The position numbers and the translations under genes were made by a program. Below, in pieces: positions 3,556 through 37,156 of a stretch of DNA of 38,718 bases. Source of the stretch: Victivallales bacterium (lineage in GTDB: Bacteria > Verrucomicrobiota > Lentisphaeria > Victivallales > GWF2-50-93); the NCBI GenBank assembly GCA_041662825.1, contig JBAZRS010000002.1, positions 1 through 38,718 on the forward strand, in the 5' to 3' direction. The notes under the pieces were generated by a model. The model did not search any database and was not told where the DNA came from. It worked only from the letters and a program-made list of their open reading frames with translations. Position 1 is the first letter of the stretch. The number at the start of each line of letters is the position of its first letter.

Positions 3556-3645
3556 AAGGTACAAGTCCCGCGCGCCTAACGGCGCTGGGATAATTCGCAC
3601 TACGCTTCAGGCGGCGCACAACTTGCCTTCAGCGTGTGCTCATTA
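3556..3645 (+). repeat. bipartite hairpin element, forward copy F1
   Basis: Layout: aaggta, then H1 tccc-gc-gcgcc taac ggcgc-t-ggga, then taattcg, then H2 acgct-tc-aggc (12-nt loop) gcct-tc-agcgt, then ctcatta. An SD and the ATG at 3658 follow. Confidence 0.85.
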
Positions 3646-3657
3646 GAGGAGGTGTTT

Positions 3658-3960
3658 ATGACGGCGAAGAGTTGCAGAAAAATTGAGGTGCTCATCACAA
3701 CGGACGCGATCTTTAGTGTCCTTCAAAACACGAAGGATCCGATCAGTGTAACCGATATCGCCCGCGCGACCGGTTTGAGCGTTGACAGTTGTTTCCGGCA
3801 GATCGGCACGATGGCCGAATTGCGCTGGGTAGAGAAAATTGGCGACGGTTATGTTCTCGGCATGAGACTGGCGGTAATTTGGGCGAAGAAGAAAGCAATG
3901 CTGGAATCAGAACGGGACACCATCGATAAAAAATTAACGGAGATAGGAGGAGATCATTAA
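3658..3960 (+). CDS. winged-helix (IclR-N-terminal-like) DNA-binding protein
   Basis: GGAGG lies upstream of the ATG at 3658. The segment ISVTDIARATGLSVDSCFRQIGTMAELRWVEKIGDGYVLG resembles a wHTH. Confidence 0.6.
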   Translation: MTAKSCRKIEVLITTDAIFSVLQNTKDPISVTDIARATGLSVDSCFRQIGTMAELRWVEKIGDGYVLGMRLAVIWAKKKAMLESERDTIDKKLTEIGGDH

Positions 3961-4967
3961 TGAAGAGAAAAACAGAAACGGAGATTTTTACAGGTGCGGT
4001 TTCAAAGCATGCGGAAGACTCGGAAAAAATGAAGCGCGATTTAGAAAAAAGCGTGGAGCAAAAACAGCAGGAAAAAGAAATTGCCATCGGCGAAATTTAT
4101 GAACTGGCTGGGAAAATTAAAGCCACTAATTTTTCAAAACATCAATCCGATTTTTTTACTCTCTTAATGCTTAAAAAAGTCAAAGACTCCAAAGAATACC
4201 GTGAGCGTTTCGGAATGACTTGGGAAAATTTCTGCGATCATGTTGGCGTAAATTGGCGCACAATTGATCGCAATTTAGAAGATTTAAAGCCTTTTCATCA
4301 GGATTTTTTACAATCTTTTGTAAATTTTACAGGGGTCACAGTAAACAAAATCAAATACTTAGCAATGAACGAATCTGTCACGTTGACAGAAAATGCCATT
4401 ACCTACAACGGCGAAACCATCCCGGTGGATGCCGAGCATGCGGATGAAATCAAAGAACTCCTGGAAACCCTCGAAGAAAACCACAAAAAAGCAACTGACG
4501 AAGCCGACACGACGATCCGCACTAAAGATCGGCTGCTCAAGTCAAAGGACGAAACCCTTAACAAGCTGGAGCGCGAACTAAAGCGCCTGGAACGTACCGT
4601 TGATAAGTCCGACCTCACGGATGAAGAGCAGGACGCCTGCAATCTGCTGCACCAGGTGCAACTCGATTTTCTAACCTGGATTTCCGACATCAAGAAAAAA
4701 ATCAAACCGCATGAAGCCCCGGAGATCGCTCTGCGCCAGTATTATTACCTGCTCATTTTTATATCCAAGCTGGCGATGGAAGAGAGACTGAACCTTCAGG
4801 AATCCTATGCCGCCGCCGAAGAGGTTCCCTGGGAAATTACCGACATGGAAATCCCTCCGCAGGAAGTAATGATCGACAACCTGCCCATGACAGCGGGCAA
4901 GGGCCTGGGCAAAAAAGTCGCGGCAAAAATAGCAGAGCGGAAAGCGAATAAAAAAAATAAACAATAA
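3960..4967 (+). CDS. hypothetical coiled-coil early protein
   Basis: TAATG overlap with the upstream gene; 335 aa; long Glu/Lys-rich helical middle region. Confidence 0.65.
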   Translation: MKRKTETEIFTGAVSKHAEDSEKMKRDLEKSVEQKQQEKEIAIGEIYELAGKIKATNFSKHQSDFFTLLMLKKVKDSKEYRERFGMTWENFCDHVGVNWRTIDRNLEDLKPFHQDFLQSFVNFTGVTVNKIKYLAMNESVTLTENAITYNGETIPVDAEHADEIKELLETLEENHKKATDEADTTIRTKDRLLKSKDETLNKLERELKRLERTVDKSDLTDEEQDACNLLHQVQLDFLTWISDIKKKIKPHEAPEIALRQYYYLLIFISKLAMEERLNLQESYAAAEEVPWEITDMEIPPQEVMIDNLPMTAGKGLGKKVAAKIAERKANKKNKQ

Positions 4968-4979
4968 GAAGGCACAACT

Positions 4980-6782
4980 ATGGCAGTCTCGGAAACCATA
5001 CTTGATCACATTCAAAAGAGTTTAAGCGGCCTCGCGACAGGCGAGATCTCAAAACGGATAAAAGAATTGGCCACGCATTATGGCGTCACAGCGGCCACCA
5101 TCAATCGTTACGCGGCGGCACGGGGAATCCGGTTTCGGAAGGAGCGTAAAACAAAGGGTATGTCCGGCGCATCGCGTGAGATTCTTCTAAACGCCTCTAC
5201 GCTGCTACTTACATCCAGACGCACATCCAACGAGATTCCCCTGCCCGCCTGCGACGCCAAGATGATCCTCGAAGATTCCGGGATGGAGACGGGCAATGTT
5301 TCGACCAGCCGGTTTTTATCCCGCCTGAGACAAGAGCAGATATCCGCAAAGGATCTGCTCCGGCCATCGCCGCACCAGCGGCTTTTGTCAGCCCATCCAA
5401 ACCATGTATGGCAATTTGACGTGACAAACTGCCTCCAGTATTTCCTCGATACAAAAAAAGGCCTGGGCGAACGCGACACCGAAATGACTCTCTACAAAAA
5501 CAAACTCGTGAAGACAGCCAAAACAATCAAAAAAGAATTGCTCCGCTACGCAGTGGTCGATCATTGCAGCGGGGCTTTTTTCTTCCTTTATTATTATGCA
5601 TCAGGTGAGCGCGCCGTGGACGGCTCCGATTTTCTCTTTCGTGCCATGCGTCCGAAGGATGAACTCATCTTGCGCACATGGAACGGGGAGTCGGCTACCA
5701 AACTCGGAAAATACCGCTTCCACGGCGTGCCATTGATGCTTATATCCGACCGTGGCTCAATTCTTACGGCAAAGGCCAATCAGGCGCTCATGGACGCGCT
5801 GCGGGTCGATCTTCAACTGCATATGCCGGGCAATCCCCGCGCGAAGGGCGCAATCGAAGGCCTGATGCATTACATCAACCGTTTTGAAGGCCGGTTGAAG
5901 TTTCAGCGGCCCGCGAGTCTTGACGAGCTAAATCGCTGGGCACTTGACTGGTGCATCTATGCTAACGGCGCGATCAAAATGCGTGACGTAGCGCCCCGCT
6001 CGGTTCTTTGGTCATACATTACAGCGGAGCAACTTCGCCTTTGCCCGGAGCAGGAACTTTACCGCCTCCTGATTAAAGAGCCGACGATCACCAGGACGGT
6101 GGACGGCTCGCGGCTGATCAGCGTGGATAACCGCTCCTATCAGATCCCCGATTCCCAGGCGGCTGGCCAGAAGGTCAACGTTGTGCGGCATCCTTATGAA
6201 TACCCGAACATCGAAGTCCACTTTAACGGCAACGTATGGCTGTGCGAACCGATACCCGAAGACATCTTCGGACGCCTGAGCAACGGCACTCCCTACGGCG
6301 AATACAAGACACCGAAACATACCGAAACGCAAAGAGCCAAGACAGAAATGGAGCAAACCGCCGAAGCCTGGGGCATCACATGGAAAGGCACCGGCGACAA
6401 GCGCATGGGCGTGGCCCCACCTGTCGGTTTCGAGTCGCCGCTTACCATATTCGGCCATCAGGCGGATAAGGTCGGCAACCTCGAATTTATCGAACGCAAA
6501 GGAACGCCGCTGGAAATCAAAGCGCCTGAGCTGCCTATAAACACTGCAATGCCGATGGATGCGGCGCAAGTTTCGCGCGGCATTGCGGTGCGGCAGATTT
6601 CCTTTACTGAATTTTTAAAGAATTTACGCGCGGAGATCGGCGTCATTACACCGGTGATGAACCGGGATCTCCGCATCAAATATGAAAACGGCATCGAAAT
6701 AAAAGAAGCGGAGGAGGTGATCAGGGCAATAGTTGAGGGGTCATGGGTCAAGGGTCAAGAAACAATGGAAGCGATGGGATAA
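4980..6782 (+). CDS. DDE (rve-type) transposase, MuA-like
   Basis: N-terminal HTH (ATHYGVTAATINRYAAARG). Catalytic-core pattern HVWQFDVTN, LISDRGS, NPRAKGAIEG. Located directly upstream of the AAA+ partner. Confidence 0.85.
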   Translation: MAVSETILDHIQKSLSGLATGEISKRIKELATHYGVTAATINRYAAARGIRFRKERKTKGMSGASREILLNASTLLLTSRRTSNEIPLPACDAKMILEDSGMETGNVSTSRFLSRLRQEQISAKDLLRPSPHQRLLSAHPNHVWQFDVTNCLQYFLDTKKGLGERDTEMTLYKNKLVKTAKTIKKELLRYAVVDHCSGAFFFLYYYASGERAVDGSDFLFRAMRPKDELILRTWNGESATKLGKYRFHGVPLMLISDRGSILTAKANQALMDALRVDLQLHMPGNPRAKGAIEGLMHYINRFEGRLKFQRPASLDELNRWALDWCIYANGAIKMRDVAPRSVLWSYITAEQLRLCPEQELYRLLIKEPTITRTVDGSRLISVDNRSYQIPDSQAAGQKVNVVRHPYEYPNIEVHFNGNVWLCEPIPEDIFGRLSNGTPYGEYKTPKHTETQRAKTEMEQTAEAWGITWKGTGDKRMGVAPPVGFESPLTIFGHQADKVGNLEFIERKGTPLEIKAPELPINTAMPMDAAQVSRGIAVRQISFTEFLKNLRAEIGVITPVMNRDLRIKYENGIEIKEAEEVIRAIVEGSWVKGQETMEAMG

Positions 6783-6802
6783 AGCAAAATGATGGTGAAA
6801 AA

Positions 6803-6937: not shown

Positions 6938-6941
6938 AATA

Positions 6942-6968
6942 CTGGATTCCGGCCTTCGCCGGAATGAC
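6942..6968 (-). repeat. family-C hairpin, inverted copy (C3)
   Basis: ctggattccggc-cttc-gccggaatgac is the reverse complement of the 8246 and 10379 copies, with a compensatory CCCGC to CCGGC stem change. Confidence 0.8.
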
Positions 6969-6979
6969 AGAACAGAAGG

Positions 6980-8239: not shown

Positions 8240-8245
8240 AAAAAT

Positions 8246-8273
8246 GTCATTCCCGCGCAGGCGGGAATCCAGG
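8246..8273 (+). repeat. family-C hairpin (C1)
   Basis: gtc-attcccgc-gcag-gcgggaat-ccagg runs into the SD of the 8284 gene. Confidence 0.8.
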
Positions 8274-9187: not shown

Positions 9188-9274
9188 AAGGTACTGATCC
9201 CATTCGCATGCGCTCAGGGATAGCTCGCTCTAATGTCCCCGCGCGCTGCGCTTCGGCGACACAAGGACTCGCTA
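9188..9274 (+). repeat. bipartite hairpin element, degenerate forward copy F9
   Basis: Layout: aaggta, tccc-attcgcatgcgctca-ggga, tagctcg, an H2 with the gcgctgcgctt core, then ctcgcta. It overlaps the 5' half of track ORF 9154..9411. Confidence 0.6.
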
Positions 9275-9291: not shown

Positions 9292-9411
9292 ATGCCGATA
9301 AAAAAAAGAGTGCCTTTCCATGCGTGGGCGTTTGAAATCGTATGCTGGGCGTTCATCTGTTACGCGGTGCTCTACTTCACGCCGGTGTGCTGGAGAATAT
9401 TTACAAGGTAG
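9292..9411 (+). CDS. possible 39-aa membrane peptide
   Basis: ATG 18 nt after element F9. One hydrophobic span (WAFEIVCWAFICYAVLYFTPVCW). The SD is weak. Confidence 0.25.
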   Translation: MPIKKRVPFHAWAFEIVCWAFICYAVLYFTPVCWRIFTR

Positions 9412-9496
9412 TTAAGTCCCGCGCGCCTATCGGCGCTGGGATAATTCGTCCTACGCTTCGAGCGGCGTCAAACTTGCTCTCAGCGTGGACTCATTA
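9405..9496 (+). repeat. bipartite hairpin element, forward copy F2
   Basis: Roughly 85% identical by eye to F1. H2 carries the compensatory pair GAGC/GCTC where F1 has AGGC/GCCT. It ends ctcatta, then GGAGG and the ATG at 9509. Confidence 0.85.
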
Positions 9497-9919: not shown

Positions 9920-10373
9920 AGACACCTCTGTCACTATAGTCCAGGAAGAAGCAAACGAAAAACTCCTTCTTGTGAAACATATCAATGAACGCATAACCGA
10001 TTTGGAAGCAAAGGCGAACGCCGAAATGGAAGCAGTGTTGTTGCCCTATAAAGCATTTCTTGATGCGCTCCAGACCGACAAAGCCGCCCTGGAAAAAGAG
10101 ATCACCACGCTGATGAAGAAAAATAAGGGTGTTCTTTTCGACGGTACCGACGTTGTCAATCTGCCGCACGGCTCCCTGATCCGGAACCTCGGCGATCATG
10201 TCACTATCCCGAAGACCGCGTTGGAAGCCTGCAAGACCAACAAGTTTAACGATGTTATCAAAATTGTCGAAAGCCTAGACCGCGACAAAATTGAAAAATG
10301 GCCGGACGCCAAACTCGTGCTCATCGGAGCGGAACGGAAACCGAAGGAAGAGTTTAAATACACGGTGAAATAA
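9903..10373 (+). CDS. gam: Mu Gam-like host-nuclease inhibitor
   Basis: About 156 aa. An N-terminal coiled coil is followed by a pattern (G.LIRN...V.IP, DVIKIVESLDRDKIEKW, KEEFKYTV) resembling the Phage_Mu_Gam family. It is in the right syntenic position. The start codon (9882 or 9903) is uncertain. Confidence 0.65.
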   Translation: MKKQLKDTSVTIVQEEANEKLLLVKHINERITDLEAKANAEMEAVLLPYKAFLDALQTDKAALEKEITTLMKKNKGVLFDGTDVVNLPHGSLIRNLGDHVTIPKTALEACKTNKFNDVIKIVESLDRDKIEKWPDAKLVLIGAERKPKEEFKYTVK

Positions 10374-10378
10374 TAATT

Positions 10379-10406
10379 GTCATTCCCGCGAAGGCGGGAA
10401 TCCAGG
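10379..10406 (+). repeat. family-C hairpin (C2)
   Basis: gtc-attcccgc-gaag-gcgggaat-ccagg runs into the SD of the 10416 gene. Confidence 0.8.
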
Positions 10407-10415
10407 AGAAAATAA

Positions 10416-10604
10416 ATGAACCTACAAAAGCAAAATCAAAGAATAGGCCATTTATTATTGGAACTGAATCACGACTTGGAAGTGAGAGAAAACCCTGAGG
10501 TTCAAGTCGGTTTACTGGAGATGATCGGGTATGTCGTGGTCGGATTGGTATCCTTTATTCTTATATCGGGGATTCTGAGAGCTTTGTTCTGGAGGTTGCC
10601 ATGA
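10416..10604 (+). CDS. small membrane protein (62 aa)
   Basis: AGGAG SD; C-terminal TM segment IGYVVVGLVSFILISGIL. Confidence 0.5.
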   Translation: MNLQKQNQRIGHLLLELNHDLEVRENPEVQVGLLEMIGYVVVGLVSFILISGILRALFWRLP

Positions 10605-10756
10605 TTAAAATAATAATCGATTTAATTATAGGATTCATTATCGGGTTTGTATGGGGTTTTGGTATCCGGGATATCCTGAGTGGATCTAACAGCAACGGGA
10701 AAATGCAACGCCCTGAACCGTGGCCTGAACCACCGCCAGAAAAGGGTGTTGAATGA
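10601..10756 (+). CDS. small membrane protein (51 aa; below the ORF-track cutoff)
   Basis: ATGA overlap with the upstream stop and GGAGG upstream. Translation MIKIIIDLIIGFIIGFVWGFGI followed by a proline-rich tail. Confidence 0.45.
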   Translation: MIKIIIDLIIGFIIGFVWGFGIRDILSGSNSNGKMQRPEPWPEPPPEKGVE

Positions 10757-10929
10757 GCCCGACGATTGAAGCGCCAGTGGAGAGGATCTGCGCGACGTGC
10801 GCGCATTACGGATTCAGTCTCGGTAATCCCAACGGATGGCGATGGACGTATTGCGCGAAGAAACATGAATGGTTTTCGGACAGCGAAGAGAAGCCGGGAG
10901 AACGAAAGGGGTGTGAGGAATGGCAGTGA
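10753..10929 (+). CDS. small Cys-containing protein (58 aa; below the ORF-track cutoff)
   Basis: ATGA overlap with the upstream gene. Translation MSPTIEAPVERICATCAHYGFSLGNPNGWRWTYCAKKHEWF...GCEEWQ. Its TGA stop lies inside repeat R1. Confidence 0.4.
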   Translation: MSPTIEAPVERICATCAHYGFSLGNPNGWRWTYCAKKHEWFSDSEEKPGERKGCEEWQ

Positions 10930-10988
10930 GCCTGTGACTCCCGAACGGGAGTCCAAAACGAACTGTCCCTGAGCGAAGCGAATGGGAG
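10927..10988 (-). repeat. bipartite hairpin element, reverse copy R1
   Basis: tgagcctgt-gactcccg-aa-cgggagtc-caaaacgaact-gtccc-tgagcgaagcgaa-tggga. Confidence 0.8.
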
Positions 10989-11010
10989 AATGAACACAGG
11001 AGAACGGAAA

Positions 11011-11214
11011 ATGGGAATAAAGAATCTGAAAGTAATAAAAAATGACCGAGCATGGCGGCGGTTTTGCCGGACAAACGACATCGATTACGATTATGTACCG
11101 ACGCCGAAAGAATATCCCTTCCTGATAGATTCACAATATCAGGGGATACAATTAGATTATTATTATTTTGCTGACATCGAAAAACTGCGGAATAAATTAA
11201 TAAAAGCGATGTGA
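11011..11214 (+). CDS. hypothetical 67-aa protein
   Basis: AGGAG lies 9 nt upstream of the ATG at 11011. Confidence 0.5.
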   Translation: MGIKNLKVIKNDRAWRRFCRTNDIDYDYVPTPKEYPFLIDSQYQGIQLDYYYFADIEKLRNKLIKAM

Positions 11215-12356: not shown

Positions 12357-12676
12357 TGAGCTGGATAGAATACATCAAAGCTGAACAGCTCCCGGAGGAT
12401 TATCAACTCATCGTTGCTGCCATCGGACTGGAGAACACCATCAAGCTGGCGCAGGCTCTGCCGAGTGTGTATGTTTATTTAAAAAGCCCGGACAAACTTT
12501 TCAAACCGGCAAAGATTCAATACGTTCTGGAGAACCACAAAAAATCCGGCCCGGACAATCCATTTAATCCGCGCCGCATGGCACTGGACACCGGCCTGTC
12601 CATCCGCGAGATTTACGACATCATCGAGAACCGCAAAGAACTCTCGAAACAACCCGCATTGTTTGAAGAGGTTTGA
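12356..12676 (+). CDS. mor: Mor/C-family transcriptional activator
   Basis: TAATG overlap start; 106 aa. LPEDYQLIVAAIGLENTIKLAQALPSVYVYLK is typical of the Mor activator family. It is the last gene before the lysis and late region. Confidence 0.78.
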   Translation: MSWIEYIKAEQLPEDYQLIVAAIGLENTIKLAQALPSVYVYLKSPDKLFKPAKIQYVLENHKKSGPDNPFNPRRMALDTGLSIREIYDIIENRKELSKQPALFEEV

Positions 12677-12697
12677 CTTTTTTCGCCGATAGAATTA

Positions 12698-12759
12698 TAA
12701 TGAGCCTGAGACTATAGTCCAAAGCGAATTATCCCGGGAGCGAAAGCGACGCGGGATAA
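12698..12759 (-). repeat. bipartite hairpin element, reverse copy R2 (degenerate H2)
   Basis: taatgagcctga-gactatagtc-caaagcgaa-ttatcccg-ggagcgaaagcgacg-cgggataa. Confidence 0.7.
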
Positions 12760-12908
12760 AGCATTTACAATAACCTGAAGGTCATCTTCGACAAAAAGCC
12801 GTTCGTCCATTAGGAGGGGCGGCTTTCTGCTTTTATGCACGGCGCAAAAGACTTATTCCACAGAATCCCCTAGAGTTTTTCCCAACGCATCTCCTCGCTT
12901 TGCCTGTT

Positions 12909-12986: not shown

Positions 12987-13616
12987 ATGATACGACGACT
13001 AATCATCACAATTATATTTCTTTTAATTACGCAGCAGACAGCCTTTGCTGCTGATTTTTTACCTGTATGGGAAAACACCATTCTTCCGCACGAGGGCGGA
13101 TACAGCAACAATATCCATGATCCGGGCAACTGGACTGGAGGTAAAGAAGGCAAAGGGCGTTTTCTCGGCACCAAGTACGGTATAGCCGCCAGCCAGTATG
13201 GCACACGGTTACTTTCACAAGGAATCATCATTAAACACCTCACCAAGGAACAAGCCCGCGCGCTATTTGAGCGCGACTACTGGTTGAAATATCATTTCAA
13301 CGAATTAAAATCCCAGGGCATAGCCGCTGAACTCTGCGACGCAGCCGTGAACATGGGCGGCGCTGGCGCAGAGGCTTTATTGAGTGAAGTATTCCGCGAA
13401 CTCGAATGGGCGGTAAATATGCCGGTACCTGTACCCGCAAAATTTACAAAAGAAACAATTCAATGGATTAATGATCTCACCTCTTACCGGCCAACACGAG
13501 TGGCCTTTTATAATTCGATCAAAATAAGGCGTGTGCGTTTCTACGTCAAGCTGATTGAACGTAGACCGGCCATGAAGCAGTTTTTTTTCGCGTGGATAAA
13601 TCGGAGCGTGGATTAG
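12987..13616 (+). CDS. endolysin: GH108-type muramidase with a peptidoglycan-binding domain and an N-terminal secretion signal
   Basis: Signal-like N-terminus MIRRLIITIIFLLITQQTAFA-AD. LPHEGGYSNNIHDPGNWTGG...GTKYGI is the GH108 signature. Confidence 0.8.
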   Translation: MIRRLIITIIFLLITQQTAFAADFLPVWENTILPHEGGYSNNIHDPGNWTGGKEGKGRFLGTKYGIAASQYGTRLLSQGIIIKHLTKEQARALFERDYWLKYHFNELKSQGIAAELCDAAVNMGGAGAEALLSEVFRELEWAVNMPVPVPAKFTKETIQWINDLTSYRPTRVAFYNSIKIRRVRFYVKLIERRPAMKQFFFAWINRSVD

Positions 13617-13636
13617 AATAAATTAGAGGAGAGGAA

Positions 13637-13795
13637 ATGCTGAAAAGAATACTTGGAATGTTAGGTTTGGTGATGGCCGGACAGGAAATTAATCGGTTGG
13701 CTATGGCCGACGTGAGTGCACCGGGCGCAGGTTATTATCACCGTTACACCGGCAAGTCGAAGACCTTCAAAAAAAACAGGCGAAAAGGACTGTAA
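13637..13795 (+). CDS. possible small membrane protein (holin-like candidate, 52 aa)
   Basis: GAGGAGAGG SD; short hydrophobic N-terminus and a strongly basic C-terminus (KSKTFKKNRRKGL). Confidence 0.3.
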   Translation: MLKRILGMLGLVMAGQEINRLAMADVSAPGAGYYHRYTGKSKTFKKNRRKGL

Positions 13796-13811
13796 AGAAT
13801 AACCTTAGAAA

Positions 13812-13923
13812 GCCCCTGGGTGTTCCGAACTGAGACGCCGCCCAGGGGCAACCATGTAACTCCTGTGATAGGCCCTGGGCGAGGGTGATGCATCTTCACA
13901 TTGCCCATAAGTAGCCCAGGGCC
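13812..13923 (+). promoter_or_regulatory. two long-range hairpins sharing a CCCTGGG/CCCAGGG core in a 153-nt non-coding gap
   Basis: gcccctggg (13812-20) pairs with cccaggggc (13841-49). ggccctgggc (13871-80) pairs with gcccagggcc (13914-23). Confidence 0.55.
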
Positions 13924-13948
13924 AGCGGGCGGGAATGAGGAAGAGTAA

Positions 13949-14530
13949 ATGAGTAAAACGGAAAAAAGAATAATCGGCGGAATTATCATCTTTGTATCAC
14001 TTGCTGCCGTCTGGGGCTGGTACCATAATCCATTAACGCAATTAACGACAAAATATACAGCGGCACCGGCGATTCCGGCTGCGGCGAAGATTCCGACTGT
14101 TAACTTGCCAGTCAAACAAGTTGTTGCTCTCGAAAAGAAGGCTGCATCGAAAAAGCTCAAACTACCCGACGCAATTTCCAACGACGATAAAAAGCAGATC
14201 ATTGCCACGGCTCAAGTTCCCGAAACGGATACCACCGGGAAAACAGATCTCGTGGCGGTCATGGATACAGATAAAGGCACAACTGAAATCATCGCCAAGC
14301 AGCAGCCCCTTTCTTTTTTTGCATTAGAAAACAAAAGGGCTATCGGTCTGCGATACGGATTCAGTACCCTGAAGGGCATCTCCGACACGGCATCAAAAAT
14401 TAATAACGAGGCTGATATCTATGGACGCTGGGATGTCCTGCGTGTCGGCTCCGTCCACCTGGGGCTTTACGGTGAAGTAAATTCACTAGGCGACGGAAAG
14501 GCGATGATCCAGGCGGAATACAGGTTTTAA
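13949..14530 (+). CDS. membrane-anchored lysis-cassette protein with an OMP-like C-terminal signature
   Basis: N-terminal TM IIGGIIIFVSLAAVWGWY, an Ala/Pro/Lys-rich linker, a Gly/Tyr-rich C-terminal region, and the ending ...KAMIQAEYRF. Confidence 0.6.
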   Translation: MSKTEKRIIGGIIIFVSLAAVWGWYHNPLTQLTTKYTAAPAIPAAAKIPTVNLPVKQVVALEKKAASKKLKLPDAISNDDKKQIIATAQVPETDTTGKTDLVAVMDTDKGTTEIIAKQQPLSFFALENKRAIGLRYGFSTLKGISDTASKINNEADIYGRWDVLRVGSVHLGLYGEVNSLGDGKAMIQAEYRF

Positions 14531-14542
14531 GGAGGATTTCTC

Positions 14543-14995
14543 ATGTGGATAATTATCATCCCGATATTAGGAATACTCGGTTTCATAATCTATAAAGCAG
14601 TAAGCAAAAAAAAAGGAAAGGAAGTTCAAAAGTCGGCAGACCCCTGTGCCGCTGGCGCGTGTGAAGCTGCGAAGCCAGCAGACCCCTGCGCAGCCGGAAC
14701 TTGTGGCGCTTCACCGCCATCAATAGAAGTTACAGTAGCGCCGAATAATCCACCCTATGTTCCCGCAGGCGTTTTTTGCACAAGATCGACATCCATTATT
14801 GCTACGGAGAAATTAACGGGAATTAACTGCGGTGATACCGGCATCAAAAGAGAATGGTTTGATAACGGGATTTTAGTCCCAAACAATAATACGAAAGAAC
14901 TCCCCAAAACATCCCTTCATGTCAACCATACCATTACTTACAAGGTGTCGGCAGAAGGGATAGAAGCGACAAGCAAGCCGATCAGGATTACCTGA
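14543..14995 (+). CDS. membrane-anchored protein with a tandem Cys-rich 14-aa repeat
   Basis: AAGGAGG SD; TM MWIIIIPILGILGFIIY; then ADPCAAGACEAAKP / ADPCAAGTCGASPP. Confidence 0.6.
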   Translation: MWIIIIPILGILGFIIYKAVSKKKGKEVQKSADPCAAGACEAAKPADPCAAGTCGASPPSIEVTVAPNNPPYVPAGVFCTRSTSIIATEKLTGINCGDTGIKREWFDNGILVPNNNTKELPKTSLHVNHTITYKVSAEGIEATSKPIRIT

Positions 14996-15050
14996 GGACT
15001 GAAATATCCTGTCAGTTAGACAGTAATAGGGCGGATGAGATTAAATAATA

Positions 15051-15290
15051 ATGAGCGACATCATCGATCAGGCGCAGGAGAACGATGAACTTTTTCGAAG
15101 GGTATCATTGGAAAAACATTTTGCCCGGCATACGCCGGGCTCTGCCGCCTCCGGGAATGCAGTTAAAATAATTGATTGCGCTGATTGTAACGAACCAATA
15201 CCGGCAAAAAGATTAAAGGCAAACCCACAGGCAACCCGCTGCGTAGAGTGCCAAACGCTGGCAGAAAAGCGAGGCTTTGAGGATGAATAA
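15051..15290 (+). CDS. TraR/DksA-family C4 zinc-finger protein
   Basis: CADCNEPIP...RCVECQ is a four-Cys motif. The protein is 79 aa, a size common in Mu-like phages. Confidence 0.75.
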   Translation: MSDIIDQAQENDELFRRVSLEKHFARHTPGSAASGNAVKIIDCADCNEPIPAKRLKANPQATRCVECQTLAEKRGFEDE

Positions 15291-25409: not shown

Positions 25410-25419
25410 AACAAGAAAC

Positions 25420-25488
25420 AAATCCCGCGCACCTAACGGTGCTGGGATAATTCGCTTTGGGATCACTCCGTGATCCACAGGCTCATTA
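25420..25488 (+). repeat. bipartite hairpin element, forward copy F5
   Basis: Layout: tccc-gc-gcacc taac ggtgc-t-ggga, taattcg, ctttg-ggatcac-tcc-gtgatcc-acagg, ctcatta, then GGAGG. It is close to the reverse complement of R4. Confidence 0.85.
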
Positions 25489-25498: not shown

Positions 25499-25699
25499 AT
25501 GTCGCAATACAAATTAAAGAAAAATGTCGCCGATTTCGTTGTGGTGGATGGAGTGTTCGCAGGTCGAAATTACAAGGCTGGGCAATTATACGATCAGATT
25601 CCGCCGCAGGAAGCAAAAAAGTTTGAAACCGTCGTCACTGAGGAAACAGCCCCTCAGAAAACGGCAAAAAATAAAGATTTAGGAGGGGGTGAAAAGTGA
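25499..25699 (+). CDS. hypothetical 66-aa protein
   Basis: GGAGG SD; coupled to the next gene by a GTGA overlap. Confidence 0.55.
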   Translation: MSQYKLKKNVADFVVVDGVFAGRNYKAGQLYDQIPPQEAKKFETVVTEETAPQKTAKNKDLGGGEK

Positions 25700-26961
25700 A
25701 AAATTACTTAGCGTATCTCGATCTGTTGGCAGTATCCGCGAACACAAAAGAAGCGGCACTGAATACCGAAGCGACGCTGGATACATCCATGCTGGTGGAT
25801 AAAAGCACCATCATCAGACTGGATCCGCGCCGGGAAAATAATAAAGATGAACTTACCGGAAAAGAAGAGGCCGATTCGATCTATGATCTCGGCAATTTAT
25901 CCAGCGCCGAATTGGTTTATAATAAGGCGCAGGCGCAGCATTTCGGTTTCGGGTATGCCTTCGCGCTGGGTGTAAGCACGCCTTCCGCCTGGGGCACCGG
26001 TTATAAGCACGCCATTTCTCCCTCGCTGGATATGTCCATGCCGTCTTTCACCGCGGCCATGCGCCTGGGCAGCACTATCTTCAAGCGACGGTTTGCCTCA
26101 ATATTTATCGATCAGTTAACCGCGACCTTTGCCAGAGATTCCTGGGCGAAGTTGTCCCTGGGCATCAAGGGAACCGGTAAATACACCGACAATATGTATA
26201 AGGAAACCGTCACCGCGGCTTATAACGCCACTTCGTTGACTTTGGCGGCTCTAGGGGTCGAAGGTGCGACCGCGCCGATCAGGCTGGACAATGTCCATCA
26301 GGTGCGCGTTCTGGTCCCGACAACCGGCGAATATGCCGAAGTCGAAGTAACTGCGGTGTCCGCTGCCACTCCGGCTGTTTTGACAATAACCGCGCCCGGC
26401 GTACCGGCAACTTCCACCACGTATGAAATTCTTTACGTGCCGACAGAATCCGGATGGATGACCTTCCCCTCTCGTGTTGTTGAACCTCCCCTCCGGGTGA
26501 CCGATCTGGTTGTTAAATTCGGCGGCAAATGGAGCGGCTCCGCATTTCTCGGCGGTAAAACGCTAGGTCCGGAGATCGAATCCATTGAACATGTTATCAA
26601 TAACGATATGGCGATTGAATACCGCGTCGGCGGTACAGGGACGTATGCGAACTATGCGCTCCGTCAGGGACGCACACAAGCCCTGAAACTTAATCGCCAG
26701 ATGCGCGACTTTATTCTCCAGCAGAGAATCATCGCCAACGAAACTTTCGGTGTGCAGATGACTGCGACCGGCGTCGAATTCGAGACGGGGAAAAGTTATT
26801 ATGTGGATGCCGTATTCCCGAAGTGCGCGGTGCTTTCCGCTCCGATATCGATTTCCGGCAGTGTGCTGGCGGAAGCGGGAGATCTGACGGTACTCCAGGA
26901 CGATACTTATGGCAGTGTTTTGGTTACCGTTGGAAACAAAGTTGCCGGGTACGCGCAATAG
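25696..26961 (+). CDS. putative major tail (tube) protein
   Basis: Assigned by position only: 421 aa, directly upstream of the chaperone and tape-measure pair. No sheath or baseplate set is present. Confidence 0.4.
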   Translation: MKNYLAYLDLLAVSANTKEAALNTEATLDTSMLVDKSTIIRLDPRRENNKDELTGKEEADSIYDLGNLSSAELVYNKAQAQHFGFGYAFALGVSTPSAWGTGYKHAISPSLDMSMPSFTAAMRLGSTIFKRRFASIFIDQLTATFARDSWAKLSLGIKGTGKYTDNMYKETVTAAYNATSLTLAALGVEGATAPIRLDNVHQVRVLVPTTGEYAEVEVTAVSAATPAVLTITAPGVPATSTTYEILYVPTESGWMTFPSRVVEPPLRVTDLVVKFGGKWSGSAFLGGKTLGPEIESIEHVINNDMAIEYRVGGTGTYANYALRQGRTQALKLNRQMRDFILQQRIIANETFGVQMTATGVEFETGKSYYVDAVFPKCAVLSAPISISGSVLAEAGDLTVLQDDTYGSVLVTVGNKVAGYAQ

Positions 26962-27075: not shown

Positions 27076-27468
27076 ATGCCGAGAATTTTATCGAACGAAC
27101 CTTGTAAAGTAACGTTTCAGGACAACATCGCGGGCGGGAATATCACGCTGGAATATACACTGCCGTCAGCGGAAGACAGAATTAAATATTCCAATTCAAT
27201 GATCTCCAGGAAAGGCCGCAAAGTAGAAGCCGTATACGGAGAAACCCGAATGAAATACGGAGAAAAAATCCTTAGTGGTATTAAGGACGGCGATTTTCTC
27301 AAAAATGACGGGACCAAGTTATCGTCTAATCCGGAGTCGCCCGCGTACAATGCTGACTGGAAAAAGATGATCGTGGATTTCGCGCCGGATGTCATTGCCA
27401 TGCTGGCCATGCACGTTTTTGAAAATGCGTTGACGATTAACGAGACCGAACTGGAGGACCCTATTTAG
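27076..27468 (+). CDS. tail assembly chaperone (gpG-like)
   Basis: 130 aa. Located between the major tail protein and the tape measure. Followed by a start-less overlapping -1 ORF. Confidence 0.55.
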   Translation: MPRILSNEPCKVTFQDNIAGGNITLEYTLPSAEDRIKYSNSMISRKGRKVEAVYGETRMKYGEKILSGIKDGDFLKNDGTKLSSNPESPAYNADWKKMIVDFAPDVIAMLAMHVFENALTINETELEDPI

Positions 27469-27776
27469 CGGATCTGGACGCGATCCGCGAAGGATTATGC
27501 AGCGAAACGCAGCAGGAGAAATGCGAGATCGAATTCGGTGAATTTCTGGAATCCTCCTGTGCGAGATGTGAAAAAAAACGGACACGGGATTTAAGCGAGT
27601 ACACCCACAAAATAGTGCATATTCGCGTACTGAAAAAAGCCGGATATCCATTTGGCAAAAACGATTTAAGCGTTGAGGAGTGGGAAGACCTGGGTAAATT
27701 GGAAGACATCATCAGCGAGAAGGAACGTAGTCAGCCCAGACCGGTATATTTAGTGACAGTAAAAGGTGAAGGGTGA
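27441..27776 (+). CDS. start-less -1-frame ORF at the gpT position (candidate frameshift extension of the chaperone)
   Basis: The -1 frame is open for 111 codons with no ATG/GTG/TTG near its 5' end. It overlaps the last 28 nt of the chaperone gene and ends at the tape-measure start. Confidence 0.35.
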   Translation, partial: RDRTGGPYLADLDAIREGLCSETQQEKCEIEFGEFLESSCARCEKKRTRDLSEYTHKIVHIRVLKKAGYPFGKNDLSVEEWEDLGKLEDIISEKERSQPRPVYLVTVKGEG

Positions 27777-29958
27777 AAAGCAAGTGAATCAAAACACGGT
27801 CACCGTACAGCTCACAGTCAAGGACGACGGCTCCGTCGTGATGAAGCAATTCGGAAAAAACTCCGAAGAAGCTCTCGGTAAAGTATCAACCGCCGCGCCG
27901 AAAGCCACTTCCGCGCTCAACAGTTTAAAATCCTCATATCTTGAATTCGCAGCCAAAGCCGCCACGGCATACATGGTGGTGTCCAAAGCGATAGATCTCA
28001 TGGATCTGGGCGCAAAAGCTATACAAGCCGAAGAATCTTTTAAAATGGTTGCTCGCGCTAATAATGAAAACGTCAATCAAGTATTAGCAGATTTGAAAAG
28101 AGTTTCTGCCGGAGTGATTGATGATTCCGCTATAATGCAAAAAACAGTCAAGGGTATGGTGTTGGGTTTAAGCGGTAATGAACTGGTAAAAATTATGGAA
28201 GCCTCTCGACTTGCCGCGCGCCTCACCGGAGAAGACGTGCAAATAGCCTTCGAAAAAATAACAGATGCTATAGCTACTAATATGCCGAGAGCGTTACGCC
28301 AATACGGGCTTGTTACCAAAGAACAATTGGCTATAGTTAATAAGGCAATCGCTGCGGGCATAGAAGATGTAAATTTATATGGTTTGGCTATGGCTAATGC
28401 TGCTGAACAGGCAAAAAAATTGACGGTAGCAGAGAGAAATCTTGTCGAAGAAATTCAGAGGGGAAAAGCCGCATGGGCGGAACGAAAAGAAGAAGCTGGC
28501 AAATGGCTTGATATATTAATCGTGCTCTATGGAAAGTACGAGGAATGGGAAAAGGAAAGTAAAAATGAAGTCCCATTGTTAGTTAGATGGTTTGGTTCCC
28601 CGGCAGAAATAGCGCAAGTCAAAGACTTGATGAACCAAATAAATCATGTAAAGCCAATGACTTTTGCCCAGAGATTTGATGCGCAAAAGGGTGATCTTAA
28701 AATTGTAAAAACACCGGCAGAATATACGGCAGACATAACTGCAGAAACAAATAAAAGAGAAGCACTTAAAAAAGCACAAGCGGCATTAGAAAAAGCGATT
28801 GAGGACGCAAAACGCCTAAGGGAAGCCTGGAAAGAAGTGCAAATGACGCTCAACGCCAAGATTGAAGGCGGCGGAATGAGTGAATTTCAAAAAGACCTTA
28901 TCGCGAATCAGTTGGAAGCTGACAAACTTACTGAAAAATTCGGCAAGCTTAAAGGCGCTATTGATCTTATACAAAAAGCGCAAGCGGCGGAAGATACGGA
29001 CGCTAGAATAAAAGCCGAGAATAAAGCCCTGGAAGCCTTTGAAAGCCGGATAGAACAAGAAACCGCGAGAGATAAGCAGATCTATGAAAAACGGCAGAAG
29101 GACGCCGAGGAGCGGCTTTCTTCCGAACGCGACATATATCAGGACCTGCGCGGTTATGAGGATAGCTATTATGCCGCGACCGTCGCGTTGATTGAAAACC
29201 AGGCAAAAAAATACCGTGATCAGTTAATATCCGAGGTTGATATTACGGCCTGGGCTACAGAAGAAAAGCTCAAAGCTCAACGGCTATTGGATCGCACCAT
29301 AGGAGGTGGCGATTTCAGCAAAGGATGGTCGCAAGGATTGACTGATTATACTAAATCATTGGGCAATTATTTTACGCAGGGCGAAGAATTAGCAAAGAAC
29401 TCCGCAACCGCGATGCACGATAGTTTTCAGAGTATCTTCTTTGACGGTTTCAAAGGACAACTAAAATCATTCAGTGATTATTGGACTTCTTTTACAGATT
29501 CACTCCTGCAATCGTTTTCCAAGATGCTGGCCGATATGGTTACTAAATGGATGATGAGTCAAATGATGATGGAAGGCGGCTCCATGACGGGCAACCTGGT
29601 AGGCGGCGCGATTGGTCTTGTGGGCAGCGCGTTCTCCGGCGGCGCTCCAGTGGCCCATGCCGGTGGCATGATCGGTTATGATTCGTTTCCTACGAGGATG
29701 ATCCCTTTTCATGCTTTTGCGGGCGCGCCGCGTCTTCATAACGGCCTGGCCTCCGATGAATTCCCGGCCATCCTCCAGCGCGGCGAAAAGGTGCTCTCCC
29801 GCAAAGAAGTTGCCCAGGGAAACGGCGGCAATAGCATCATGATCTCCATCCCCATCACCTCGGACGTGGGTAGTAAAAAGATGATTGTGGACTTAAAAAA
29901 TAGCCTTGAATCAACAGTACAAAATACCGTTGAAAAGGTTATCAAGAGGCATAGCTGA
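27766..29958 (+). CDS. tail tape measure protein
   Basis: 730 aa. Long Ala/Lys/Glu-rich helical body and a Met/Gly-rich hydrophobic C-terminal segment (MMSQMMMEGGSMTGNLVGGAIGLVGSAFSGG). The start codon (GTG 27766 or 27784) is uncertain. Confidence 0.8.
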   Translation: MKGEKQVNQNTVTVQLTVKDDGSVVMKQFGKNSEEALGKVSTAAPKATSALNSLKSSYLEFAAKAATAYMVVSKAIDLMDLGAKAIQAEESFKMVARANNENVNQVLADLKRVSAGVIDDSAIMQKTVKGMVLGLSGNELVKIMEASRLAARLTGEDVQIAFEKITDAIATNMPRALRQYGLVTKEQLAIVNKAIAAGIEDVNLYGLAMANAAEQAKKLTVAERNLVEEIQRGKAAWAERKEEAGKWLDILIVLYGKYEEWEKESKNEVPLLVRWFGSPAEIAQVKDLMNQINHVKPMTFAQRFDAQKGDLKIVKTPAEYTADITAETNKREALKKAQAALEKAIEDAKRLREAWKEVQMTLNAKIEGGGMSEFQKDLIANQLEADKLTEKFGKLKGAIDLIQKAQAAEDTDARIKAENKALEAFESRIEQETARDKQIYEKRQKDAEERLSSERDIYQDLRGYEDSYYAATVALIENQAKKYRDQLISEVDITAWATEEKLKAQRLLDRTIGGGDFSKGWSQGLTDYTKSLGNYFTQGEELAKNSATAMHDSFQSIFFDGFKGQLKSFSDYWTSFTDSLLQSFSKMLADMVTKWMMSQMMMEGGSMTGNLVGGAIGLVGSAFSGGAPVAHAGGMIGYDSFPTRMIPFHAFAGAPRLHNGLASDEFPAILQRGEKVLSRKEVAQGNGGNSIMISIPITSDVGSKKMIVDLKNSLESTVQNTVEKVIKRHS

Positions 29959-30002
29959 GACAAGCTGAGAACGAGTTTAAACGACGTTCGAAGCGTAAGT
30001 CA

Positions 30003-30035
30003 AACTATCCCTGAGCGAAAGCGAATGGGATAGTT
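30003..30035 (-). repeat. bipartite hairpin element, reverse partial copy R5 (H1 only)
   Basis: aactatccc-tgagcgaaagcgaa-tgggatagtt. Confidence 0.7.
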
Positions 30036-30038: not shown

Positions 30039-30128
30039 AAGGTGTCCAATCCCGCGGCGCTTTGCGCCTGGGATAATTCGCTCAGCGAATTTCAGTTCGC
30101 TGCGCTTCTAAAATTCGGAGACTCATTA
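30039..30128 (+). repeat. bipartite hairpin element, forward copy F7
   Basis: Layout: aaggtg, tccc-gc-ggcgc ttt gcgcc-t-ggga, taattcg, H2 cgaattt...gcgctgcgcttct...aaattcg, GGAG, ctcatta. The final A is the A of the ATG at 30128. Confidence 0.85.
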
Positions 30129-35440: not shown

Positions 35441-35442
35441 TT

Positions 35443-35664
35443 ATGTTTAAAAGGGTTCTTATAGCACTGGAAAGCATTGCGGCAAGTTTAACTGCTTTGC
35501 CGATAATATTAAAAGAATTGCAAAATATGAGAGAAGAGCAATTAAGACTGATGCAAAAGGCCAGAGAAGAAACTCAAAATACACCACAGCGTATTGCGGA
35601 GATAGCCGAACTGTTTTCTAAAAAAATTTTGATTGCAGGAGGAAAGAGAGATGCCGGGACATAA
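35443..35664 (+). CDS. hypothetical 73-aa helical protein
   Basis: ATG 3 nt after the upstream stop. Confidence 0.45.
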   Translation: MFKRVLIALESIAASLTALPIILKELQNMREEQLRLMQKAREETQNTPQRIAEIAELFSKKILIAGGKRDAGT

Positions 35665-36424
35665 TTTCCATACTGAATATAGCAACACTCCAGGATCAGA
35701 GACGCTTTTTACCGTAGCTTCAATGGGTGCGCCATTAATACAACTGGATAAGGCCATAACCAAGCTGAAAAATATAGTTATCGGTTGCGCCGGAGTCATT
35801 ACCTATAATAAGACGACGGGCGTGTTAAGCTGGTCAGCAACCTTGACAATTCATTTTAATTCCGATGCGGGATTATCCATTACCAACACGGTTGCGGCGG
35901 GGAGCGTAACCTTGACGGATGGCCAGTTTGCTTATGTTGACCTTTCTGAAACAAACGCGGCGGCGTTGACTGTTACAGCGGCGACCTACCCTTCCGCCGC
36001 GGCCAGTAATTTTATCGCCTATAATAGAATAATATTGGCTTATCGTGATACCACCAGCGATAATATTTATTCCGGATATCTCAACCTGCCATTAAACGAT
36101 CCGGACAAATTAGTGCAGACCTTGACCGATGCCGATGCCGTGACGATTGACTGGAGCAAAGGATCAACGGCGGAGATAACTCTGGACCGGGCGACAACGG
36201 CGTTCACCTTTTCCGGAGCTTACAATGGCCAGCGTTGCGTTTTGATCATCAAGCAATATGCAGGGCCCGGCGCCGTTACATTCGGCGCGGAAGTCCGGGC
36301 AGGAACCGATCTTGCGTCGCCACCCACTTTGACGGCTACGACGGATAAAAAGGATTATCTGGGCTATATTTATAACGGCTCAGATACGAAATATGATTTT
36401 GTCAGTTTAACACAGGGGTTTTAA
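35651..36424 (+). CDS. tail-fibre-like protein
   Basis: GGAGGAAAGAG SD before the ATG at 35651. Ala/Thr-rich and beta-rich composition. Located in the distal tail cluster. Confidence 0.5.
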   Translation: MPGHNFHTEYSNTPGSETLFTVASMGAPLIQLDKAITKLKNIVIGCAGVITYNKTTGVLSWSATLTIHFNSDAGLSITNTVAAGSVTLTDGQFAYVDLSETNAAALTVTAATYPSAAASNFIAYNRIILAYRDTTSDNIYSGYLNLPLNDPDKLVQTLTDADAVTIDWSKGSTAEITLDRATTAFTFSGAYNGQRCVLIIKQYAGPGAVTFGAEVRAGTDLASPPTLTATTDKKDYLGYIYNGSDTKYDFVSLTQGF

Positions 36425-36427
36425 ATA

Positions 36428-37081
36428 ATGAGCTCTCCTTTTGACGATACCTTTACAGGCGCAGACGGTTCGTCTCCTAACCCGATTATATGGACAGTTG
36501 TGGGAACGCCGACTATCCAAAGCAATACTTTGGAAATAGTTAATGATGATGAATACGTTGTTTGTAAATTAACATTTACCGGAGATTTTAATATTCAGGT
36601 TGATTTTGCGACTCAAAGTGAGCCCGCTACAAATTATTGGACTGCTGATTTACTCGCATATATAGACGGGACTCATTATGTAGGAGGAAGGGCTAGCTAT
36701 AATTCAGGGAAAAAATTTCAATCTTTTTATATTAATGGTGGTTCCCTGGCTTACGATACTGCCACTAGGACTAATACCTATGGGAAACTTAAACTTACAA
36801 GAACAGGAAATTCCTTTTCAATATATGATGCAGATGGAGCGGGAGGATTTTCACTACTGGGCACTCATACCATAGGCTCGGCTGGCAATCAAGTATCTAT
36901 CTGGATAAGGTGCCAACATTGGGGAGCTAGCCCTAATATAACTTGCAGATTTGATAATTTTTTAATCAATAGTGGTTATACTTCCCGAACAAATAATTGT
37001 GTGAGTCTTAGTACATGTGACGTCGCCACCGAAGGAGAAGAAACCCCGAGCGGAAAAGACAGGTTTTTTTTAGTGTTTTAG
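36428..37081 (+). CDS. lectin/glucanase-like (ConA/LamG-type) putative receptor-binding protein
   Basis: 217 aa. F.D.F.G....P....W and similar patterns are typical of jelly-roll lectin domains. Its TAG stop lies inside repeat R6. Confidence 0.45.
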   Translation: MSSPFDDTFTGADGSSPNPIIWTVVGTPTIQSNTLEIVNDDEYVVCKLTFTGDFNIQVDFATQSEPATNYWTADLLAYIDGTHYVGGRASYNSGKKFQSFYINGGSLAYDTATRTNTYGKLKLTRTGNSFSIYDADGAGGFSLLGTHTIGSAGNQVSIWIRCQHWGASPNITCRFDNFLINSGYTSRTNNCVSLSTCDVATEGEETPSGKDRFFLVF

Positions 37082-37156
37082 TGAGCCTGTGGCTTCCATA
37101 GGAAGCCCAAAGCGAACTATCCCAGGCGCAACGCGCCGTGGGATCGAGATAATTCA
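37079..37156 (-). repeat. bipartite hairpin element, reverse copy R6 sharing its H1 with a truncated forward-type tail
   Basis: tagtgagcctgt-ggcttcc-ata-ggaagcc-caaagcgaact-atcccaggcgc-aac-gcgcc(g)tgggat-cgag-ataattca, followed by AGGAGG and the ATG at 37175. Confidence 0.8.

Follow-up and report, generated by a model that had tools for sequence, protein, structure and literature searches.

A double-hairpin repeat family of Smithella-type chromosomes and their phages, found at gene boundaries of a Mu-like prophage

The 38,718-nt stretch of DNA analysed here (contig JBAZRS010000002.1, positions 1 to 38,718; the window) contains a Mu-like prophage plus an adjoining piece of host DNA, and its intergenic gaps carry a repeated element of about 78 nt that is structured throughout: a first hairpin of 24 nt (H1) abuts a second of about 40–54 nt (H2). 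A preliminary description of the window had claimed about 15 copies and given positions for 14. Covariance model R1, built from 60 aligned copies of uniform length (58 bacterial, one from a viral contig and one from the window) and run on the window with filters off, recovered exactly those 14, eight on the plus and six on the minus strand, with E-values from 3e–19 to 3.4e–5; the next-best match was far weaker (E = 0.34). The strict sub-pattern TCCCGCG-N8-16-CTGGGATARTTCG occurred five times in the window, vs. none in 100 shuffles. The element is not phage-specific: it is a small repeat family of Smithella-type chromosomes and their phages. The window copies, with R1 bit scores and the open reading frames (ORFs) and Shine–Dalgarno (SD) sequences around them, are:

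3556–3645, plus: sense copy, core 3566–3645, AAGGTAC 5′ module at 3556–3562; 62.7 bits, E = 3.8e–13; followed by GAGGAGG-N5-ATG, start at 3658
9188–9274, plus: degenerate sense copy, core 9198–9274, basal pairing TAGC:GCTA; 29 bits, E = 3.4e–5; a 39-aa ORF begins 23 nt downstream, start at 9298; this copy was left out of the preliminary numbering of forward copies
9405–9496, plus: sense copy, core 9417–9496; 65.3 bits; 86% identical to the copy at 3563–3646; the TAG within its AAGGTAG ends a small upstream ORF, and GGAGG-N8-ATG follows, start at 9509
10924–10987, minus: antisense copy of the short-H2 subfamily; 30 bits; the TGA stop of ORF 10753–10929 lies inside its end (CAGTGAG)
12698–12756, minus: antisense copy, short H2, 22 nt past the stop at 12676; 46.2 bits; related phage contig L004 has an orthologous copy with a different H2 stem
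15896–15983, plus: sense copy, core 15906–15983; 88.2 bits; its final A opens the small-terminase ATG, and the H2 3′ arm includes GGAG
18001–18076, minus: antisense copy, long H2, directly past the TAA stop of the large terminase; 61 bits; orthologous copy at L004 6858–6935
21865–21928, minus: antisense copy, short H2, opening with the TAG that stops the Mu-like protease gene; 40 bits
23153–23240, plus: sense copy before the major head gene, core 23160–23240, degenerate 5′ module GAGTAAC; 67.7 bits
25413–25488, plus: sense copy, short H2, core 25423–25488, then GGAGG-N5-ATG at 25499; 45.3 bits
26962–27062, plus: sense copy with enlarged H1 and basal pairing CAAT:ATTG, between a 421-aa ORF (25696–26961) and a 130-aa ORF (27076–27468); 46.1 bits; these ORFs are labelled tail sheath and tail tube by position only, with no family match
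29952–30030, minus: antisense copy; 37.9 bits; the TAG stop of the tape-measure gene (29956–29958) lies within its end (TAGCTGAG)
30039–30128, plus: sense copy, core 30050–30128, back to back with the 29952 copy; 80.8 bits; the start reads CTCATTA/TG, where the slash marks the element boundary, and GGAG lies inside H2
37079–37143, minus: antisense copy, short H2, whose TAG is the stop of ORF 36428–37081; 48.6 bits; downstream, AAAGGTAGGAGG acts as SD for the next gene

The genes around them, beginning with the host flank, are:

51–572: C-terminal part of hydroxylamine reductase (hybrid-cluster protein)
1367–2077, minus: repressor with helix-turn-helix and S24 peptidase domains
Early genes, plus, in order: rve-type transposase, MuB-type AAA+ protein, Gam, GemA
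Next, plus: lysis gene, TraR-like gene, small terminase, large terminase
Head genes, plus: Mu portal, Mu protease, gpT head protein
Last, plus: tail genes, D12 methyltransferase

All 14 copies are intergenic. Of the 22 intergenic gaps that measure 40 nt or more, 13 contain copies, and these account for 1,119 of the 3,094 intergenic bases (36%); unit length ranges from 59 to 91 nt, and mutual identity reaches at most 86% over 66–84 nt. Repeat finding in the window had already linked copies across both orientations, and the copies at 25413–25488 and 21865 are reverse complements of each other (repeat pairs I11 and I14), which bears out the preliminary view that there is one family in two orientations. 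As that description also had it, sense copies end 0–26 nt before a start codon, and two share the A of the ATG. Its placement of the antisense copies at stop codons holds as well: four of them (10924, 21865, 29952 and 37079) contain the upstream stop within their own end, one more lies directly after the stop and one 22 nt after it. In every copy it is the H2 end that faces the adjacent ORF.

The confinement of all copies to these gaps, the invariable direction of the H2 end, and the presence of copies flanking the major head gene and the two ORFs named by position as tail sheath and tail tube favor an alternative in which the repeat is primarily a cis-acting RNA element of the phage, its hairpins setting segmental mRNA stability or processing and translation starts, with mobility secondary. 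Sense copies, which run from an A/U-rich stretch through two hairpins to SD and AUG, would then provide a protected 5′ end and a gated ribosome-binding site, and antisense copies a 3′ stabiliser right after the stop. We consider this alternative possible though rather unlikely, for reasons that emerge below from the folding of the element and from its comings and goings at orthologous sites.

Two transcriptional roles were tried and rejected. A promoter, with TGGGATAAT read as an extended –10, found no sigma-70-like call at any core copy, and constitutive promoters within late prophage operons would be harmful, a further reason against it. An intrinsic terminator is contradicted by the lack of a U-tract and of any terminator call across a core copy; scan calls touched copy ends only (terminator-like at 21859–21876, minus strand; promoter-like at 12673–12701). 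The same lack of a U-tract and of terminator-like or sigma-70 promoter-like sites over core copies counts against the RNA role. The site at 12673–12701 (plus strand; TTGACT, 17 nt, TATAAT) is the best sigma-70-like site of the window; it lies just upstream of the lysis/late region, and its –10 hexamer is partly built from the TAATGAG end of the antisense 12698 copy.

In H1, a TCCC...GGGA hairpin, the outer four pairs are nearly invariant. Many phage copies have an inner stem free of mismatches (GCGCC:GGCGC, GCACC:GGTGC, GGCGC:GCGCC), and the commonest host variant, GCGTCGCTTCGCTCC, has two mismatches there. H2 is closed at its base by TART of TARTTCG pairing with AYTA of CTCAYTA: pair 27:76 is A:U in 38 and G:C in 22 of the 60 model copies and unpaired in none, and the 14 window copies show TAAT:ATTA, TAGT:ACTA, TAGC:GCTA, CAGT:ACTG and CAAT:ATTG. 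Because these two supposed linkers pair with each other, H2 is one long irregular hairpin abutting H1. The preliminary layout was thus right in its two hairpins and wrong in treating the linkers as single-stranded; nor is the AAGGTA that it placed at the head of the element part of the core, since this module is missing from antisense copies and from nearly all host copies.

The compensatory changes reported earlier are borne out, and the H2 stems quoted for the copies at 25420, 21865, 37079 and 10927 were correct. Over the 60 copies, two-sided changes occur in 14 of the 18 H2 pairs and 89.5% of cells are paired, vs. 39–47% in a whole-structure control in which the partner was shifted by one column; in 64 window and viral-contig copies 83.5% are paired, with double changes in 21 of 23 pairs. 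The motifs TCCC/GGGA and TTCG...CTCA are retained while the stems vary. Such constancy would suit duplex DNA sites, of the kind reported for some BIMEs (bacterial interspersed mosaic elements), at which gyrase, a nucleoid protein, a transposition cofactor or a similar protein of host or phage would bind and organise the topology of the Mu-like genome; BIMEs are transposition hotspots of a Mu-like Pseudomonas phage (PMC5977238). Covariation, however, makes pairing within one strand the conserved feature, the family also occurs in non-transposing phages, and there is no candidate protein; we judge this explanation very improbable.

Mismatches single out one strand. On the forward-sense strand the recurrent mismatch is TC opposite TC (46 of 60 copies in H1, 23 of 60 in H2) and the H1 loop is TNC in 44 of 60, so that the complementary strand carries tandem G.A pairs and a GNA triloop closed by C-G. 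Tandem G.A pairs and C-G-closed GNA triloops are stable motifs, especially in DNA. The complementary, reverse-sense strand was the better folder, with a mean advantage of 3.4 kcal/mol, in 51 of 58 host copies (P = 1e–9), and it was so in 30 of 37 sense phage copies as well; folded singly as DNA, copies gained only modestly over shuffled sequence (z = –1.2 to –2.9). G:U intermediates are nearly absent from the stems. Counting G.T vs. A.C mismatches as a guide to the selected strand was indecisive for host copies (8 vs. 18), and the same count in the model-fitted phage alignment was discarded because short-H2 copies were misaligned.

Together, the near-absence of G:U and the constancy of the better-folding strand suggest that the hairpins are kept at the DNA level or inherited, rather than selected as phage RNA. 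The RNA role is further strained because the strand transcribed from sense copies is the worse folder in those 30 of 37 cases, and because the U:G wobble common at the base of short H2 stays on one element strand in both orientations, leaving the mRNAs of antisense copies with C.A there. Rfam gave no match at gathering thresholds over the whole window on both strands. Orthologous copies, moreover, can have wholly different upper stems, GACT:AGTC in the window and GGATCAC:GTGATCC in L004, which looks like stem replacement or template switching, not stepwise compensation.

The family's range was surveyed by scanning viral contigs and a species-representative genome collection for the H1-plus-linker pattern, which matched 16 viral contigs and 84 genome stretches. 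Seventy-eight of the 84 come from metagenome-assembled genomes (MAGs) named Smithella, Smithellaceae, Syntrophaceae or ‘delta proteobacterium’, with up to a dozen contigs per genome; the remaining six, from unrelated taxa, show no further likeness and no R1 match. Across 749 kb of genome and viral loci (about 100 loci), R1 found 230 copies, the host loci among them having been reached through one H1 variant; short-read MAGs, moreover, under-represent repeats. Neighbors in the host are ordinary genes, among them those for the Der GTPase, anthranilate synthase (TrpE), acyl-CoA dehydrogenase, enoyl-CoA hydratase, acyl-CoA synthetase and sensor kinases, and one host locus only showed similarity to phage proteins. 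The family is carried by Mu-like phages, by primase/helicase phages and by phages with a different large terminase and a protease–capsid fusion, and therefore tracks the host, not one phage lineage.

Host copies avoid genes and are oriented. Although ORFs of at least 100 aa (called from the sequence, as were all gene calls in the compared loci) span 82% of the host sequence, 178 of 190 copies lie outside them. Roughly 90% of the copies in chromosomes run antisense to their flanking genes: 43 of 49 co-directional intergenic regions are purely antisense, five purely sense and one both. In mRNA order an antisense copy reads TARTGAG, then H2′, then H1′; in 12 of the 49 regions it opens with the upstream stop codon itself, and in three more it begins on the base right after that stop. 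Replication-strand bias alone would be expected to give a weaker orientation bias than 43:5. The bias suggests that either fitness or the insertion process depends on how a copy is oriented to transcription, and it is among the points that favor an RNA role. The preliminary description had named, as a result that would count against it, a scatter through the host chromosome with no relation to gene ends: copies are indeed abundant there, yet strongly tied to gene ends.

The element multiplies, and empty and filled sites together with nested copies indicate that it is mobile. Where the gene that ends at 15886 meets the small terminase gene, the related phage L004 has a bare TGATGG overlap and the window a full copy; that orthologous junctions in related phages lack copies is also awkward for the RNA role. 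Downstream of der, four species (L052, L094, L060 and L100) share a copy that begins at the stop codon. L052 carries an additional one, which fits precisely between the final sense codon of der and the resident copy; in the element sense it follows immediately on the CTCACTA of that copy. Several copies sit inside another's H2 loop (TTCAAA/TCCC...CTCACTA/CTTCGCT), many stand head to tail without a spacer, and H2-only modules exist. An A directly precedes the element in 65 of 89 cases, and CAAA (24 of 89) or the CTCAYTA of another copy is the commonest left flank. These observations, and the chromosomal scatter with them, lend no support to the earlier argument that covariation speaks against an origin as a MITE-like (miniature inverted-repeat transposable element-like) mobile repeat. 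In host locus L081, at about 4800–5050, lies a tandem array with a 61-nt period and partial modules (H1-like plus half an H2), which suggests growth by slippage besides insertion.

As to the mode of movement, terminal inverted repeats are absent, the left end TCCCGCG... being unrelated to the right end ...GGCTCATTA, and the nested insertion CAAA/TCCC...CTA/CTTC has no target-site duplication (comparing L052 with L094 gives an ambiguous answer). An element that has unlike hairpins at its two ends, folds better as one strand than the other, lacks inverted repeats and duplications and inserts next to a motif resembling its own terminus fits single-strand ‘peel and paste’ enzymes of the RAYT (REP-associated tyrosine transposase; REP, repetitive extragenic palindrome) or IS200/IS605 kind better than other known classes.

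Copies in phage DNA differ from those in chromosomes in density, orientation and make-up. Strict matches number 129 per Mb in the window vs. 3.0 per Mb in a MAG from long reads, whose contigs measure 2.1 and 0.57 Mb; the difference is about 40-fold. The ratio of sense to antisense is 8:6 in the window and 36:26 over all phage copies, vs. about 1:9 in the host (Fisher P = 6e–4). A short-H2 subfamily, laid out as TTCGCTTTGG, a variable stem and CACAGGCTCA, has five copies in the window and 18 in viral contigs, vs. none in 596 kb of host loci holding 120 cores; with one search pattern for both, it was present in nine of 16 viral and none of 84 host loci. Sense copies are preceded by a 5′ module, an A/T-rich stretch with (T)TAAAGGTAC and three to five more bases before H1, that is almost confined to phage DNA (as AAGGTAC) and often supplies the TAA stop of the upstream gene. 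Both variants, being nearly confined to phage DNA, can be read in favor of an RNA role.

The phage variants reach further into translation signals. Fifteen phage copies end ...CTCAYTA/TG, the last base of the element being the A of the start codon, and 14 of these have an SD core (GGAG, AGGA or AAGG) in the H2 3′ arm about 7 nt upstream, vs. three of 35 other phage copies and six of 105 host copies (P about 1e–8). In such ATG-abutting copies both the SD and the A of the AUG lie within the lower H2 helix. This specificity is again what an RNA role would lead one to look for, and the start-associated role proposed in the preliminary description holds for this subset, not for the family at large.

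We also considered that copies serve as recombination linkers, their roughly 80 nt of shared boundary sequence promoting module exchange among Smithella phages. One family does sit at the gene boundaries of unrelated phage types, and the variable region 10373–11211 of the window is bracketed by hairpin elements. The low mutual identity of the window copies is a poor basis for such exchange, however; the region where the genes of the window and L004 differ most clearly (13616–15051) has no copy at either edge, and the chromosomal copies with their orientation bias are left unexplained. We think this improbable.

Our favored reading, to which we give a probability of roughly 0.7, is that the element is a REP/BIME-like mobile repeat with phage-adapted variants, a family that populates the chromosomes of Smithella and Smithellaceae and several unrelated phages; sharing with the host was the one of four roles suggested earlier that gained support. 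The element would be non-autonomous and moved in trans by a host enzyme that recognises its folded single strand, presumably the reverse complement of the ‘forward’ sense; the likeliest type of enzyme is an HUH/tyrosine transposase, RAYT-like or IS200/IS605-like. Read in antisense it begins TAR-TGA, two in-frame stops that could end an upstream gene; read in sense it ends in an A that may be followed by TG. In phage variants, GGAG, AGGA or AAGG in the H2 3′ arm at a spacing of about 7 nt would add an SD, and the A/T-rich stretch with TAAAGGTAC a stop. Because its ends carry translation signals, a copy could sit between packed cistrons and destroy neither. After insertion the hairpins would be transcribed inside polycistronic mRNAs, where they probably act as REPs do: the 3′ hairpin of an antisense copy would protect the upstream cistron, and in SD-bearing sense copies the hairpin would occlude the SD and AUG and damp translation. 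We thus take the repeat to be a mobile, strand-specific DNA hairpin element whose ends tolerate intercistronic sites and appear tuned for them in phages, with REP-like effects on mRNA that are likely by analogy.

Several points weigh against this reading. All-vs-all clustering of 1,407 ORFs from 100 loci (L002–L101) yielded no recurrent non-orthologous ORF, the recurring ones being orthologous housekeeping genes only. A tblastn search for an IS200-like TnpA, with an approximate query sequence, found none in about 0.8 Mb of loci and returned spurious matches only (an ethanolamine-lyase-like protein, a transporter and an oxidoreductase subunit). The prophage itself encodes no transposase candidate besides the Mu A/B-type pair. 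With neither terminal inverted repeats nor a target-site duplication, we can only infer how the element moves, and the arrays could have grown by slippage or unequal recombination. Frequencies of subfamilies in the host are biased, because host loci were found via a single H1 variant. Finally, the 43:5 bias in the host, the roughly 40-fold density in phage and the phage-only subfamilies suggest that the element does something, and pure selfish spread does not predict them.

A more functional account is tentative and in our estimate the weaker bet: phage lineages of the host repeat may serve as portable intercistronic cassettes. These would pass between phages that are unrelated but share a host, would determine how stable individual mRNA segments are and would gate translation of the gene downstream; the antisense chromosomal copies that start at stop codons would be a 3′-end counterpart. 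Each cassette would open with a stop codon and an AAGGUAC leader rich in A/U, continue through both hairpins, with an SD buried at the hairpin base, and close on the A of the AUG.

Among known repeats the element functions most like REP/BIME but falls outside their definition. REPs and BIMEs, too, are high-copy extragenic hairpins of chromosomes, mostly between co-directional or convergent genes, and form clustered mosaics of modules; REPs lie near the 3′ ends of upstream ORFs, their termini can supply TAG stop codons, and REP/BIME are thought to be transcribed and to be moved by a domesticated tyrosine transposase (PMC3733652). The present family likewise combines high copy number (230), extragenic location (178 of 190), a place at ORF 3′ ends and stop-supplying termini (12 of 49). 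Unlike a REP, a single palindrome of 20–40 bp, it is about 78 nt long with two different hairpins in one orientation, and it lacks the unpaired GTAG/CGTC tag, beginning TCCC... and ending ...CTCAYTA, with CGTC only inside H1 of the main host variant. Its arrays run head to tail in one orientation, unlike BIMEs with their alternating units and conserved linkers; no RAYT was found in about 0.8 Mb of loci; and it is very dense in phage genomes, with subfamilies of their own.

PATEs (palindrome-associated transposable elements), which derive from IS200/IS605, have subterminal hairpins at both ends, no inverted repeats or duplication, insertion 3′ of a fixed tetra- or pentanucleotide and a cognate TnpA. 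The element resembles both them and the REP/TnpA-REP system in its two unlike, imperfect hairpins, H1 and H2, which extend to its boundaries without inverted repeats or duplication, in its one better-folding strand and in its insertion beside a short motif like its own end. It differs in that no cognate transposase with matching ends was seen and in its loosely defined target (TCAAA or CTCAYTA). Correia and ERIC (enterobacterial repetitive intergenic consensus) MITEs have terminal inverted repeats and a TA duplication, whereas this element has neither the terminal repeats nor the target-site duplication of Correia/ERIC/RUP-type MITEs. With BOX of Streptococcus pneumoniae and with Correia/ERIC it shares a modular structured intergenic make-up in both orientations, though no sequence similarity; BOX and Correia/ERIC are co-transcribed with flanking genes and can bring translation or transcription signals.

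Neisseria REP2/CREN and the PeSL cassettes of T4-type phages supply a 5′ untranslated region, ribosome-binding site or stem-loop at starts. The element is like both as a repeated cassette at gene starts and unlike them in sequence, size and architecture, and we know of no sharing of this kind between host and phage described for either. Sense copies work like the start-associated sequences (SAS) and extended SAS (ESAS) of cluster K mycobacteriophages, without belonging to that family. Those are repeats placed right before starts, with the SD core and sometimes the upstream stop inside; SAS is a 13-bp asymmetric GGGATAGGAGCCC motif, 3–7 bp before starts, in one orientation and absent from the host, and pairing in ESAS is unsupported (PMC3203893). 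The element, by contrast, is a covarying double hairpin in both orientations (8:6) and abundant in the host.

The window also holds a second intergenic hairpin family, TGTCATTCCCGCGnnGGCGGGAATCCAG, at 6942–6969 (minus), 8245–8272 (plus) and 10378–10405 (plus). Plus copies are followed directly by GAG (CCAGGAG) and then, after about 8 nt, by the next gene's ATG. This family is phage-borne in appearance, since viral loci have 27 copies vs. one in 596 kb of host loci; its core ATTCCC-N8-GGGAAT resembles the Neisseria dRS3 repeat. A host-type mini-hairpin, ATAACCTGAAGGTCATCT, lies at 12770–12787 beside the antisense 12698 copy; in host genomes this module occurs inside H2 loops (27 copies), and it was in no other phage locus. 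The two longest intergenic gaps, 13617–13948 (about 330 nt) and 27469–27765 (about 300 nt), are free of both hairpin families; the latter gap, which precedes the tape-measure gene, may be the site of a hidden frameshifted chaperone gene.

ORF 10753–10929, whose stop codon comes from an element copy, encodes a small Cys-rich protein of 58 aa (CxxC...C), overlaps the preceding stop as ATGA and is uncalled in the public contig. ORF 14543–14995 contains a 42-nt tandem duplication (14621–14704, 71% identical) that gives a 14-residue protein repeat. By megablast, 23 kb of the prophage had no DNA-level relative among 50,697 phage records. Its left end falls somewhere between 572 and about 950. The host flank at 51–572 is the last 173 aa of hydroxylamine reductase; a related genome has this gene likewise split, into 373 + 173 aa (L110, 8875–10522), perhaps by an in-frame stop or selenocysteine codon. 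We rejected naming the host from this gene, which is too conserved to inform; host assignment is based on the shared repeat and on that one related genome, L110, which carries one copy of the element.

Nothing relevant was found in the literature on Smithella repeats or phages, and a full-text search with the core motif gave irrelevant primer matches only. Smithella is an uncultured syntroph, important in methanogenic alkane degradation, and a repeat family common to this host and its phages is a practical host-assignment marker for viral contigs. The family is also a clear case of phage genomes far denser in a host-type repeat than the host itself, with the repeat reshaped to carry stop, SD and start signals. 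Should the cassettes prove to govern translation or the decay of mRNA, they would amount to an expression module that can be transferred; should they be purely selfish, they illustrate how a hairpin element can persist where phage genes leave little space between them.

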